A DNA stretch of 56,876 bases from Trueperaceae bacterium (GTDB taxonomy: Bacteria; Deinococcota; Deinococci; Deinococcales; Trueperaceae), in the NCBI GenBank assembly GCA_035703635.1, contig DASSXV010000076.1, positions 1-56,876 on the forward strand, written 5' to 3'. The position numbers were made by a program, and so were the translations under genes. Of the stretch, positions 33,111-36,254 are shown in pieces. The notes beneath the pieces were generated by a model. That model saw only the letters and a program-made list of their open reading frames with translations. It had not been told where the DNA came from and searched no databases. The stretch's first letter is position 1. Each line of letters begins with the position of its first letter.

Positions 33111-35243
33111 TCAGTCGCCGCTTACACCCGCGCCAGAACTTGCACCACCTTCGGGCGCGGCATGGTGATCGAAGAGCGCCTGAATGCCGTCGAGGCGTGC
33201 GGCCACCAGCTGAGCTACGTCAAGCACTTGCGGGGCGTTCTCCGCCTCCGCACCGTCGCTCGAGGAGAGCATGACCTTGCAGAACGGGCAGCCCGTCGCT
33301 ATGACTTGGGCCCCTGTCGCCACGGCCTCGTCGAAGCGTGCGTTTGACACGCGCTGGTCGCCCTCCTCCTCTTCCTTCCAGAACTGAGCGCCGCCTGCGC
33401 CGCAGCAGAAGGAGTCGTTGCGGTTGCGTGGCATCTCGATCACTTCGTTGCCTCCGCTGGCGAGGACGTTACGCGGCGCGTCGTAGATGCCGTTGTGGCG
33501 CCCGAGGTAGCACGGGTCGTGATACGTGATCGACTCGTCGAGCGTGAAAGTCGGAATGCGCCCCTCGGCCATCAGTTGCTCGATCAGTTGGGTGTGGTGG
33601 GTCACGCTGTACTCGCCGCCCAGCTGCGGGTAGTCGTTGAACAGGGCGTTGTAACAGTGCGGGCACGTCGTCAGCACTAGCTTGCGCTTGTCCTTGTCGA
33701 GCTTCTCGTCGACGAGCACGGCGTTGAGCGTTTCCACGTTCTCCGTCGCCAACTGGTAGTAGAGGTACTCGTTGCCTGCGCGGCGCGCGGGGTCGCCGGT
33801 GCACTTCTCACCCTTGCCTAGCACGGCGTAGTTGACTTTCGCTTGGTCCAGGATGCGAGCCATCGCCCTCGTCGTCTTCTGCGCGGCCGGGTCGTACGAG
33901 CCGGCGCAACCGACCCAGAAGAGGACCTCGAAGTCGGGGTTCTCCTCCACCGTCGGCACGGTAAGGCCATCGGCCCACTCCATGCGCTTGTCCTGGCCGA
34001 TACCCCACGGGTTGCCGCTACGCTCCATGCCGCGGAACGCGGTTTGCAGCTCGGCGGGGAACTCGCCTTGCATCATGACGAGGTCGCGGCGGATATCGAC
34101 GATGTCGATCATCTGCTCGCAACCTACGGGGCACACCTCCATGCAGGCGCCGCAGGTGGTGCACGCCCACACGGCCTCGGCCGGGATGGCGAACTCGAGG
34201 AGCGAGCGTGGGCTCTCCGCCCCACCGGCGAACTCCTCGGCGATCATGTTCAACTCGTAGCGTTTGTTGATCTCGAGCGCAGCCGGGCTGAGGGCCTTGC
34301 CCGTCTGGTTGGCGGGGCAGACGTTCGCGCAGCGGTTGCACTGGATGCAGGCGTAAGCGTCGAGGATCTGCGGGAAGCGCAGGTGCTCGAGTCGTGCCGC
34401 GCCGAACTGCTCCGCCGTGTCGTCCTCGAGGTCGACCGGCTCGAGCACCCCGAGCGGTACCGGGGCGAGCTCTTCCGTGCGGCGGTCGAGCGCGAAGTTG
34501 GCAGGCGCCGCGAAGAGGTGCAGGTGCTTGGAGCGCGGGAAGTACGGCAGGAACGCCAGGATGATGCCGAGAGCGCCCCACCAGAACACGTGCCAGCCGA
34601 TGATGCGGCCGTCGCCCGGCCCGATGAGGCCAGCGACGATGCTCGTGATCGGTTGGTAGGGGTCGGGGCCGCCGTGCGACGCGAGGAGGAAGCTCTCGGC
34701 CAGCAAGCGCGAGCCGACGTGCAACAGGATGAAGCCGCCGACGATGAGGCTGTCGAGCTGCACGCCGCCTGCCGCCACCTTCTCGTGGAGCTTCACGCGG
34801 GCGCCGTGGGTGATGGTCTTCGGTTTGACGACGAAGCGCCGGATGAGGAAATAGACCATGCCGACGAGGATCAAGAAGGTGAGGATGTCGGCGATCAACA
34901 AGTAGATGCTGCCGACGACACCAAAGTTCAATCGCGAAGTGAAACTGACGGGCAGGAAGCCGTTGAGGGCGTCGACCGCGTTGACTGCCAGGTAGAGCAT
35001 GAAGCCGTAGAAGATGAAGGAGTGAAAGAAGCTGGCGACGGGCCGTGCCCTGAAGACGGTGGTCTGGCCGAGCGTGCGCATTATCCCGTCGAAGATGCGG
35101 CGCGGTAGTTGATTGAGGCGCGGCACGGGCCCGTTCTGACCGCGAGCGATCACTTGAACAACGCGCCTGAAGCCAACGTACGCGAAGTAGAAGGAAGTGG
35201 CGGCTAACAGCAAGAAGATGATCTTCTCTGGGATGCTCAGCAT
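33111..35243 (-). CDS. fadF: Membrane-anchored Fe-S oxidoreductase (FadF/HdrD/GlpC family)
   Basis: N-terminal TMs, SKHLH, CIQCNRCANVCP and CTTCGACMEVCP [4Fe-4S] motifs, CCG domains (CPHC, HDPCYLGRHN, FCCGAGG, CPFC). Confidence 0.85.
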   Translation of the reverse strand: MLSIPEKIIFLLLAATSFYFAYVGFRRVVQVIARGQNGPVPRLNQLPRRIFDGIMRTLGQTTVFRARPVASFFHSFIFYGFMLYLAVNAVDALNGFLPVSFTSRLNFGVVGSIYLLIADILTFLILVGMVYFLIRRFVVKPKTITHGARVKLHEKVAAGGVQLDSLIVGGFILLHVGSRLLAESFLLASHGGPDPYQPITSIVAGLIGPGDGRIIGWHVFWWGALGIILAFLPYFPRSKHLHLFAAPANFALDRRTEELAPVPLGVLEPVDLEDDTAEQFGAARLEHLRFPQILDAYACIQCNRCANVCPANQTGKALSPAALEINKRYELNMIAEEFAGGAESPRSLLEFAIPAEAVWACTTCGACMEVCPVGCEQMIDIVDIRRDLVMMQGEFPAELQTAFRGMERSGNPWGIGQDKRMEWADGLTVPTVEENPDFEVLFWVGCAGSYDPAAQKTTRAMARILDQAKVNYAVLGKGEKCTGDPARRAGNEYLYYQLATENVETLNAVLVDEKLDKDKRKLVLTTCPHCYNALFNDYPQLGGEYSVTHHTQLIEQLMAEGRIPTFTLDESITYHDPCYLGRHNGIYDAPRNVLASGGNEVIEMPRNRNDSFCCGAGGAQFWKEEEEGDQRVSNARFDEAVATGAQVIATGCPFCKVMLSSSDGAEAENAPQVLDVAQLVAARLDGIQALFDHHAAPEGGASSGAGVSGD

Positions 35244-35341
35244 GCAGGCGTCCTCCTGCGCCGGCCGGGGCTCGGGCGCGTAACGCTAAGGTTCTGGGCC
35301 CCAGTCTATAGGCCACTGGCGCGGTGAGGCACCACGGCACA

Positions 35342-35369
35342 ATTGTACTCAGTACAAGTTACGGGTCAA
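35342..35369 (-). promoter_or_regulatory. fadF promoter TTGACC-N16-TACAAT overlapped by palindromic operator TTGTACTCAGTACAA (FadR-like)
   Basis: Perfect 7-1-7 inverted repeat at 35343-35357; -35 at 35369-35364 and -10 at 35347-35342 on the minus strand. Confidence 0.75.
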
Positions 35370-35466
35370 GGCGTCTACGCCGACCCTCGCGCGCATGAGA
35401 GAACGGTGTACGAGTCTTCGTAGCCTGGTCGCCACATGAGCGCCTGCTTGGTACTAACATGTCGCT

Positions 35467-35636
35467 ACCACGGAAAGGAGGTGGTCTATTATTAAACGCT
35501 TGGCAATGACCGGTGGAGGTGCCCGCCTAGGGTAGCCAAGAGCCGCCTCCTGGATGAGTCGGAACTCGAGGTTCCCCCAAATTCCAGGCTGGCACCGACT
35601 CGCCCCAGACAACTTGTCTGGGGCGAGTTTTTGTTT
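35467..35636 (+). ncRNA. Candidate stand-alone structured RNA (or sORF mRNA) with extended SD, pseudoknot-capable core and terminator
   Basis: Plus-strand TAACAT -10-like element (35455-35460) and U-tailed terminator between two minus-strand genes; several complementary segments (see findings). Confidence 0.6.
35598..35636 (+). terminator. Intrinsic terminator
   Basis: ACTCGCCCCAGACAA-C-TTGTCTGGGGCGAGT perfect inverted repeat followed by TTTTGTTT. Confidence 0.85.
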
Positions 35637-35660
35637 ACCGAGTTGGAGGCTCTTACGAGT

Positions 35661-36254
35661 TCAGCGCTTGCCGAGCAAACGCCACGCCGTTGGCAGCAGC
35701 ACGGTCGCCAGACCAAGCTTGATGAGGTCACCAGCCACGAACGGCAGCATGCCGAGCTCGATGGCCCGTAGCCAGGAGCCGCCTACGGCGAAGTGCAGCC
35801 ACGTGAGGCCGAACGCGTAGATGACGAGGCTTGCCACCAGCATGGCCACTGCCGTGAGGCGCATGGATCGGTCCCAACCGCGTTCGGCCAACGCGCCGAG
35901 CAATGTGGCGGCCACGACGAAGCCGACCAAGTAACCGCCCGTCGGCCCCATCAGGTAAGCGAAGCCGGACTGACCACCAGTGAAGAGCGGCATGCCTGCC
36001 ACGCCGAACAGCAAGTACGCGCCGCTCGTCATGGCGCCAAGGCGGGCGCCGTAAGCCGCCCCGAGCAGGAGCACGCCCAAGGTCTGGCCGGTGACCGGCA
36101 CAACGCCGATCTGCAACCTGATCTGCGCCAGGAGCGCCAAGAACGCCACGCCGGCAACCACGAGCGCAGCGGTGCGCAACCCACCACGCACGGCGGTCGT
36201 TGGCGTTGGCATTACGGTGCTTAAGAGAGTGGAACGGCGGTTGGCGCTGGTCAT
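35661..36254 (-). CDS. bioY: Biotin transporter BioY
   Basis: VPVTGQTLGVLL.GA..G, G.P.FTGG..G..YL.GPTGGYLVGF, PFVAGDLIK. Confidence 0.93.
   Translation of the reverse strand: MTSANRRSTLLSTVMPTPTTAVRGGLRTAALVVAGVAFLALLAQIRLQIGVVPVTGQTLGVLLLGAAYGARLGAMTSGAYLLFGVAGMPLFTGGQSGFAYLMGPTGGYLVGFVVAATLLGALAERGWDRSMRLTAVAMLVASLVIYAFGLTWLHFAVGGSWLRAIELGMLPFVAGDLIKLGLATVLLPTAWRLLGKR

Follow-up and report, generated by a model that had tools for sequence, protein, structure and literature searches.

The window analysed here is the whole 56,876-nucleotide stretch of contig DASSXV010000076.1 (assembly GCA_035703635.1; positions 1 to 56,876, forward strand) from a Trueperaceae bacterium of the phylum Deinococcota, and the element under study is a candidate small RNA of about 170 nt on its plus strand (35465-35636; all features of the RNA given below lie on this strand). 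As judged by sequence comparison, this element is a genuine, separately transcribed small RNA gene kept in single copy, and a sub-threshold distant relative of the Rfam family Ms_IGR-5 (RF02471), of which it would be this phylum's version. We propose, with a confidence evenly poised between acceptance and doubt, that it is a translation-gated switch of the Ms_IGR-5 family built around a ribosome-binding unit; the rival readings that we considered all rank below this one. An initial annotation of the window, made from the sequence alone, had described here a stand-alone RNA with an extended Shine-Dalgarno (SD) sequence, an AUU-initiated open reading frame (ORF) and a pseudoknot, and on reading the window sequence we found every motif that it listed at the position given for it.

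To establish the phyletic spread of the element, we performed BLASTN searches, which showed the stretch to be present in most relatives of the window's family, and built a covariance model (R1) from 29 of its copies in that family (alignment A1). R1 recovered one and only one copy in 113 of the family's 128 genomes (a tally that takes in one unpublished genome, G233), in 73 of the 79 high-quality genomes and in 35 of 36 genera. Run on a sample of the phylum, it detected all 12 genomes of the window's family together with three minor genera of a second family, to which a motif scan added two more second-family genera and a third family. The three largest genera of the phylum yielded just weak R1 matches, or pattern matches at the frequency of a reversed-pattern control; the weak matches L076 and L074 (genera g23 and g26) were rejected, each falling within a coding sequence or at its beginning, and L075, in the largest genus (g21), was viewed as a model alignment alone. 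Given these coding-sequence matches and control-level counts, the RNA was not found in the genomes searched from these genera. The predicted RNA is also unusually stable (folding z = -4.07, with none of 200 shuffles equally stable), and a 14-mer from its SD region, GAAAGGAGGTGRTC, occurs once in the window with at most one mismatch against an expectation of 0.01, and three times in the 2.9-Mb genome, one of these being the antisense of the 16S rRNA 3' end. Of the arguments against a chance arrangement, conservation is the strongest.

The transcription signals of the element are conserved along with it. A TANNNT -10 box precedes it in 96 of 96 unique upstream regions, as compared to 7 of 96 for a reversed-string control, and in 89 of them it lies exactly 7 nt before a CCAC motif; in the window this box reads TAACAT (35455-35460) and predicts a transcript start at about 35466-35468. 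At the other end is an intrinsic terminator (35597-35636), with a 15-bp stem (35597-35629) followed by a T run, which was the single site returned by a terminator scan, on the plus strand only. Across 100 copies (alignment A2), all 10 of its counted stem pairs have changed on both sides. Both flanking genes are on the minus strand, namely a 710-aa protein with CCG and 4Fe-4S dicluster domains, divergent from the RNA, and the convergent BioY. This pair of neighbours is kept across much of the window's family and is absent from several of its genera and from the second family. Since the neighbours vary and the element's own promoter and terminator are conserved, the element behaves as an independent unit and not as a leader, in agreement with the stand-alone plus-strand gene of the initial annotation.

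We turn to the 5' part of the RNA and its complementarity to 16S rRNA. The extended SD sequence GAAAGGAGGTGGTCTA (35473-35488) had been proposed to pair with the canonical 16S rRNA 3' end over 16 nt (14 Watson-Crick and 2 G-U pairs), and as the 16S rRNA of the organism's own genome ends in GGATCACCTCCTTTCT, this pairing holds for the organism itself; it can be extended by one more G-U at its 5' side. Within this region the 10-nt segment GGAAAGGAGG (SD1; 35472-35481), which complements the last 10 nt of the organism's own 16S rRNA, is nearly invariant in the 29 copies of A1. The second GGAGGTG (SD2; 35515-35521), 11-12 nt before the stop codon, is likewise conserved, with GGAGGT invariant in 29 of 29 copies.

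Between and across these two sites runs a micro-ORF, IIKRLAMTGGGARLG (35488-35535), which starts at ATT 35488 or at a second ATT (35491) and ends at TAG 35533-35535, giving 14-15 codons plus the stop; its 3' end reads GGA GGT GCC CGC CTA GGG TAG. Its AUU-type start, put forward from this one sequence, proved to be a property of the group. When 116 sequences were searched by a motif regular expression, all 97 that matched had an in-frame ATT, ATC, ATA or CTG start (CTG in the second family) and a frame of 13-16 codons ending in ...[TA][SG]GG[ATSV]R.G-stop, the 19 misses being divergent in the motif itself. None of the 83 unique copies has an in-frame stop, whereas 59 are interrupted in the +1 frame and 49 in the +2 frame; when the variable parts are shuffled, a stop arises in 33.5% of cases. 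The distance from SD1 to GGA varies modulo 3 (69, 6 and 8 unique sequences in the three classes) and that from the start codon to GGA is invariably 21, 24 or 27 nt in the 83 unique copies. Among these copies the start is ATT in 41, ATC in 21, ATA in 18 and CTG in 3, and it lies 8 nt from the SD in 68; the in-frame codon just upstream, at a 5-nt spacing, is TTG in three copies and CTG in eleven, and in five a TAG immediately precedes the start. A stop codon is always present (TAA 63, TAG 18, TGA 2). The encoded peptide shows a different pattern: its N-terminal half is hypervariable, and its C-terminal ...SGGAR(R/L)G is conserved within the phylum through codons that show no synonymous variation (GGA GGT in all copies), such that the changes observed there covary with the partner strand of helix P1 (see below). 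By these patterns the reading frame is under selection and the peptide is not.

The start region of this micro-ORF has a parallel in infC, the gene for IF3. IF3 discriminates against AUU-type starts, as established for E. coli. The infC of the window's own genome (contig C15, L276:1460-1500) reads ...CAGGAGGTGGAGTCC ATT TCG AAA GAG CTG AAA GTG AAC GAG CAG ATC CGC. We took 30 infC loci, with one left out as unpublished and one lacking the regular-expression motif. ATA, ATC or ATT, and never ATG or GTG, occupies the expected start, 18 nt before the (V/I)N(E/D)QIR motif, in 28 of 29 loci of the window's family (L276 and L277-L304). GGAGG or GGAGGTG stands about 8 nt upstream of this start when the sequences are read, the distances returned by script varying with the sub-motif picked. 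As its spacing and start class match those of the family's infC genes, the micro-ORF can be said to copy the infC start region; by this analogy IF3-sensitive initiation on it is plausible, and the earlier suggestion of an IF3-sensitive small ORF gains support from it.

We next consider the fold, for which three lines of evidence were used: RNAalifold, pair counts on the 100 copies of A2, and a MAFFT alignment (A3) of 56 sequences from several phyla. A2 was fitted to the covariance model and thus favours the structure of that model, which is why the structure-blind A3 was made. In A2, 98.2% of the cells are paired, as against 84.5% in shuffles and 31-55% when the partners are slid; in A3, the helices H1a and P1 are paired in 90.6% of cells, as against 74.2% in shuffles and 31-48% with slid partners, with 115 double-change cells versus 36 in shuffles and 9 of 14 pairs showing double changes. 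The MAFFT alignment of the 3' half (A4) proved too uneven for the pairs of P2 and P3 to be counted by column, and anchored scripts were used for these instead; here the best-helix statistic was only weakly above its controls (5.45 vs 4.99 and 4.71).

The 5' domain, H1, comprises two helices that flank the SD1 bulge. In H1a, CCAC (35468-35471) pairs with GTGG (35513-35516), just before the second GGAGGUG, and this is the partner favoured by covariation over the local ACCAC/GTGGT hairpin of the initial annotation; its varying pairs in A3 are AU27/CG21/GC3/GU2, CG32/AU16/GC4 and GC25/CG16/AU7/UA2. In H1b, TGGTC (35482-35486), which extends the 16S complementarity (GGAUCA), pairs with GACCG (35508-35512); 93.9% of its cells are paired in the 100 copies, GC-to-AU changes occur in 4 sequences, and the helix is also in the RNAalifold consensus. 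Because H1a and H1b flank them, SD1 forms a 10-nt bulge between the two helices and the start codon lies in a hairpin loop, with the 3' strands of H1b and H1a (together 35508-35516) inside the ORF. A further stem proposed in this region, CTTGGC/GCCAAG, is not conserved when A1 is inspected by eye.

SD2 stands at the junction of H1 with the long-range helix P1, in which GGTGCCCGCC (35518-35527) pairs with GGCTGGCACC (35587-35596) directly 5' of the terminator; the family form is GGUGCCCGYC with GRCGGGYACC. P1 covaries within the phylum (pairs GC42/AU27/GU23/UA4 and UG44/CG32/UA23) and, in A3, across phyla too. Enclosed by it is P2, whose 5' strand GGG(T)AGCC (35530-35537) holds the stop codon and pairs with GGTTCCC (35570-35576); its GGG/CCC foot is paired in 99.3% of cells in the 100 copies, and lineage-specific extensions such as AACUGGU/ACCAGUU and GGGUAACUG/CGGUUACCC can be recognized by eye. 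The C-rich stretch AGCCGCCTCCT (35541-35551) follows in the window sequence, and within it an anti-SD-like loop, CCGCCTCCT (35543-35551), is able to form 9 bp with SD1 or, alternatively, to pair with SD2. The third helix, P3, is made by CCTGGA (35549-35554) and TCCAGG (35583-35588) and crosses P2 to form an H-type pseudoknot. The 5-mer complementary to a copy's own junction occurs in its P2 loop in 46 of 100 copies, as compared to 15.7% for junction 5-mers of the other classes, and the helix recurs in variant forms (CUGAG/CUCAG, AUUGAG/CUCAAU, UCUUGAG/CUCGAGA, GUUCAAG/CUUGAAU), most relatives having YUGAG/CUCAR. Thus, of the pseudoknot originally proposed, the CCTGGA/TCCAGG helix stands, and its other half, GAGTCGG/CCGACTC, together with the competition with the terminator that it implied, is seen in part of the genus only (by eye, uncounted). 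The 3' strands of P2, P3 and P1 with the intervening junction occupy 35570-35596. An alternative local hairpin, GGAAC...GTTCC (35561-35575), competes with P2 for GGTTCCC, and one genus reads GGAUCC...GGAUCC at this site (by eye). The single-sequence minimum-free-energy fold contains both P1 and P2; with the stop region masked as though occupied by a ribosome, the 3' half folds into P3 and the local GGAAC/GUUCC hairpin instead.

The initial annotation had not recognized the element as a named Rfam family, and indeed Rfam in its gathering mode reports nothing in the window. Nevertheless, RF02471 (Ms_IGR-5) aligns to the element over its full length (model positions 1-184) at 33.8 bits and E = 4.5e-6, below its 45-bit cut-off, and a copy from the second family (L069) likewise falls under it. 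With strict filters, RF02471 gave two weak matches in 141 genomes of the phylum, both unrelated, and missed the window's own copy too. We then carried out a two-part motif scan with one genome per species, its pattern for the other phyla including GAGGTG, and obtained at least 120 matching stretches, 80 of which are listed as loci. Going by the titles of their records, these listed loci are mostly from Actinomycetota, with further ones in Acidobacteriota, Latescibacterota, Planctomycetota, Eisenbacteria, a heliobacterium, Syntrophobacter and SAR86. Of the 20 listed loci tested with RF02471, 9 score above its cut-off, at 48.8-175.5 bits: mycobacteria score 172-175 bits (L219, 175.5), L149 85, two Acidobacteriota 52.3 (L209) and 51.6, and an acidimicrobial genome 48.8; L213 was scanned and fell below the cut-off. 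In the reverse direction, R1 matches 74 of the 80 listed loci, all pre-selected by motif. In whole-genome searches of five genomes behind such loci, its best matches in G275, G276 and G272 (41.8, 34.6 and 29.0 bits; E = 3e-10, 7.2e-8 and 3.9e-6), have the same scores as R1 gives on the loci L213, L209 and L219, respectively, with RF02471 passing at L219 and L209. In the other two genomes, from Micromonospora and Kineococcus, R1's top matches score lower (E = 6.5e-4 and 0.039), and the correspondence with listed loci is confined to the first three genomes. The reciprocal model matches, together with covariation in two helices shared across phyla, are the grounds for homology to Ms_IGR-5, and hence the element is better described as a sub-threshold relative of a named family than as an orphan.

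The layout of SD, ORF, SD2 and stop recurs in 76 of 77 other-phyla loci among the matches listed. In these the start is TTG in 28, ATG in 28, GTG in 13, CTG in 5 and ATT in 2. GAGGTG is followed 9 nt later by the stop in 67 of 76, the stop codon is TAG in 64 of 76, and 68 of 76 read the motif as GAG GTG (...EVA..), whereas the window's phylum reads GGA GGT. The prevalence of UAG in these listed loci occurs despite their GC-rich genomes, the window's phylum having UAA in 63 of 83 copies; the position of the stop in the P2 stem (GCUAGC) may explain the choice of UAG in the other phyla. Ms_IGR-5 itself is known as an actinobacterial small RNA: it is listed or detected in two Streptomyces species, S. 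lividans (PMC8079986) and S. avermitilis (PMC8780764), where RNA-seq backs it, and, as IGR-5 or ncMSMEG15794c, is reported as expressed in M. smegmatis (PMC10454040); significant ribosome-protected reads are reported for its homologs in M. abscessus and M. smegmatis (PMC4974804). Our literature search, supplementary tables aside, returned no functional study of Ms_IGR-5, and a search under names of the ncRv0812/0813 type also returned nothing.

Some observations on the genomic settings of these loci can be made here. Upstream of the RNA, a promoter-like TTGACC-16-TACAAT on the minus strand (35342-35369), the sole sigma-70-type match within 34900-36000, is oriented toward the divergent CCG/4Fe-4S gene (33111-35243). 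In many Actinomycetota (L192:2584-4868 and 12 more loci), Ms_IGR-5 adjoins a divergent FUR-family regulator and a GCV_T/YgfZ-like gene, with a convergent THAP4-like heme-binding protein in the same loci. The Fe-S neighbour in the window and the FUR and heme neighbours in Actinomycetota raise the possibility of a link to iron or another metal. The latescibacterial copy L213:6893-7064 lies directly upstream, on the same strand, of ORFs that by eye resemble ribosomal proteins L13 and S9. Two AT-rich candidates from SAR86 (L182 and L185) have ATT 8 nt after GGAGG and the frame ...GGA GGT GCC TTC TGA; their R1 support is weak (E of about 3e-4 and 5e-4) and P1 is unconvincing in them by eye.

Comparative evidence shows the core of the proposed translation-gated switch: an SD bulged out of H1, a start codon in the loop about 8 nt after GGAGG, an ORF running through the 3' strands of H1, SD2 and P1, and a stop codon in P2 of a P2/P3 pseudoknot that is enclosed by P1, which in turn abuts the terminator. 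On this core a 30S subunit would dock at the bulged SD, and initiation and translation would unzip H1, P1 and P2. A ribosome near the stop codon would then let the 3' half refold into P3 and the local hairpin, such that the accessibility of the P1 3' strand and of the C-rich anti-SD-like loop would change during ribosome occupancy. After termination the core would refold, and the state of the RNA would thereby report on the status of ribosomes and of initiation. A ribosome loaded close to the 5' end would probably shield the RNA from 5' decay as well. Because the start is non-canonical and mirrors the infC start region, occupancy in the window's clade should respond to IF3, being high as long as the factor is limiting and low once it is plentiful. 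The output could lie in a target bound in trans by the C-rich loop, in the titration of 30S subunits or in the stability of the RNA itself. In any case, the RNA seems to act by engaging ribosomes and not through its peptide.

The strongest of the competing explanations, which we nonetheless consider unlikely, is that the RNA is a 30S-docking stabilizer without meaningful translation: the extended SD would hold a 30S subunit and shield a structured RNA from 5'-to-3' decay, the weak start would keep translation low, and the frame and stop would release an occasional ribosome. The placement of the SD, about 6-16 nt from the predicted 5' end with a 10-16 nt match to the 16S 3' end, a start that is non-canonical in all 83 unique copies of the phylum, and a peptide that is not conserved are all consistent with this. 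It also has a precedent in the STAB-SD of Bacillus thuringiensis cry3A, for which section 3.2 of PMC4113751 describes 30S binding as proposed to block 5'-3' decay. Against it, the start has a fixed near-optimal spacing (8 nt in 68/83), the listed other-phyla relatives use canonical ATG, GTG or TTG starts in 69 of 76 cases, and the position of the stop with respect to SD2 and P2 is fixed (67 of the 76 listed have it 9 nt after GAGGTG). The ribosome-protected reads reported for mycobacteria (PMC4974804) point the same way, though docking and translation are indistinguishable in them.

A further reading, in which the RNA is a dedicated sensor or decoy for initiation status, with the bulged SD reading the mature 16S tail and the AUU/AUC/AUA or CUG start copying infC, appears improbable to us. 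Here the ribosome-loaded, unfolded share of the RNA would track free 30S subunits and IF3 activity, and feedback would come through 30S titration, the RNA's own stability or the C-rich loop.

Also improbable, and ranked below the stabilizer, is a base-pairing small RNA whose C-rich anti-SD-like loop, CCGCCUCCU, would pair with the SD regions of targets and repress them, with the SD, ORF and P1 serving as a lid. C-rich seeds that target SD regions are common among Gram-positive small RNAs, and 53 of 100 copies do have CCUCC 7-14 nt past the stop, as against 4.2% of shuffles, with C-rich stretches visible by eye after the stop in actinobacterial copies. Yet the motif is missing or altered in the remaining 47 of 100 copies, when the core of SD, ORF and P1 is nearly invariant; the stretch is partly engaged by P2, P3 or loop 1 in the fold; and no target is known, no target search having been made.

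That the locus is a gene for a functional micropeptide of 14-15 residues is very improbable. An open frame conserved with its SD and stop, and the C-terminal ...SGGAR(R/L)G kept within the phylum, would be expected of such a gene; against this stand the hypervariable N-terminal half, conserved C-terminal codons that never vary synonymously and whose changes follow the P1 partner strand, and the reading of the same GAGGUG in another frame in 68 of 76 listed other-phyla relatives. The type-I-toxin-like messenger suggested at the outset fares no better, the peptides being short, polar, Gly/Arg-rich and variable. Least credible of all is regulation in cis, with the RNA as a leader or attenuator, or else antisense regulation of the convergent bioY by read-through of the terminator. 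A leader-peptide-like ORF followed by a terminator, a convergent BioY downstream in many family loci and a potential pairing of the window's GAGTCGG with CCGACTC at the terminator foot could be adduced for it. However, the window has no same-strand gene downstream, other genes flank the RNA in several of the family's genera as well as in the second family and other phyla, and a 7-bp anti-terminator, not conserved beyond part of the genus (by eye), would have to contend with a 15-bp terminator. A programmed frameshift or read-through signal was rejected, as by eye the interval from SD2 to the stop contains no X XXY YYZ heptamer and the +1 frame ends within 7-8 codons. A CsrA sponge and a decoy for Era or another 16S-tail-binding protein were dropped for want of a motif match; moreover, CsrA is not known from Actinobacteria.

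Several observations weigh against the translation-gated switch, or against parts of the account on which it is built. The C-rich loop reads CCUCC in just 53 of 100 copies and, by eye, not in most actinobacterial ones. Support for P3 is moderate, and 1-2 nt of this helix overlap with P1 and P2; as H1b and the SD hardly vary, little covariation comes from them. The open frame could reflect mere selection for a "safety stop" on a ribosome-binding RNA. As the other-phyla starts are canonical in 69 of the 76 listed loci, the family as a whole cannot have IF3 sensing as its function. RF02471 also found nothing in 14 control genomes, among them Corynebacterium glutamicum, Thermus thermophilus and Deinococcus radiodurans, so that the RNA is not universal even where it might be expected; for C. 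glutamicum, either the RNA is absent or the strict filters lost it, as they did the window's own copy. Finally, of the 7 public RNA runs that contain part of the stretch, contigs of 4, drawn from 3 studies, were examined. These contigs span the element and the two flanking genes at similar depth and show no strand, start or end, so that they speak neither for nor against a separate transcript.

Together, these observations indicate that the design of Ms_IGR-5, labelled in Rfam as an "Actinobacteria sRNA", extends well beyond Actinomycetota. Going by record titles, it is found in the window's phylum, in Acidobacteriota (where two loci pass the Rfam cut-off), in Latescibacterota and in Eisenbacteria, with weaker support in Planctomycetota, a heliobacterium, Syntrophobacter and SAR86. 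The conservation of nucleotides and not of the peptide points to an old RNA acting by ribosome engagement. The window's clade constitutes a natural experiment: in every one of its copies the canonical start has given way to AUU, AUC, AUA or CUG, spaced as in the family's infC, and this swap provides a concrete and testable link to IF3-dependent start-codon discrimination. The discovery of its function would have a bearing on the way in which bacteria sense free ribosomes or their capacity for initiation; and were the sensor reading true across the family, this would be a widespread "ribosome test-drive" or ribosome-status RNA in at least six phylum-level groups.

Comparison with known systems places the element closest to Ms_IGR-5. 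The two share their own promoter and terminator, a GRAAAGGAGGUGGUC super-SD flanked by H1a, a micro-ORF of 11-17 codons, and a second GAGGUG; in both, P1 stands beside the terminator and the stop codon at the base of P2. Ms_IGR-5 starts with AUG, UUG or GUG, whereas the window's phylum uses AUU, AUC, AUA or CUG; the latter reads GGA GGU with a stop, mostly UAA, 11 nt after GAGGUG, in contrast to GAG GUG, 9 nt and UAG in the former. Moreover, the copy of the window's phylum has the H1b register shifted by one, a short P2 domain and a CCUCC loop. With infC the RNA has in common GGAGG(UG), a spacing of about 8 nt and an AUU, AUC or AUA start, its own version being GGAGGUGGUC with such a start at 8 nt in 68 of 83 copies; infC, however, encodes IF3 itself and forms a closed feedback, whereas the small RNA is without a conserved protein and has its start in a hairpin loop. 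Like the STAB-SD, it bears near its predicted 5' end an SD-like site that pairs with the 16S 3' end, but the STAB-SD functions without initiation in the leader of a long mRNA, whereas here there is a start at SD spacing, a conserved short ORF and a stand-alone structured transcript. The Caulobacter small RNA CC2171 (RF01867), compared by its Rfam consensus, has GAAAGGAGGUGAUCC near its 5' end with a start-like GUG directly behind it; a variable domain closed by a long-range helix follows, and then a terminator. Membership in that family was rejected (18.9 bits against a gathering score of 75 bits). CC2171 is without the second GAGGUG, and we treat it as an architectural analogue only; by this analogy, its outline, with an SD complementary to 16S rRNA, suggests that there may be a wider class of SD-bearing small RNAs.

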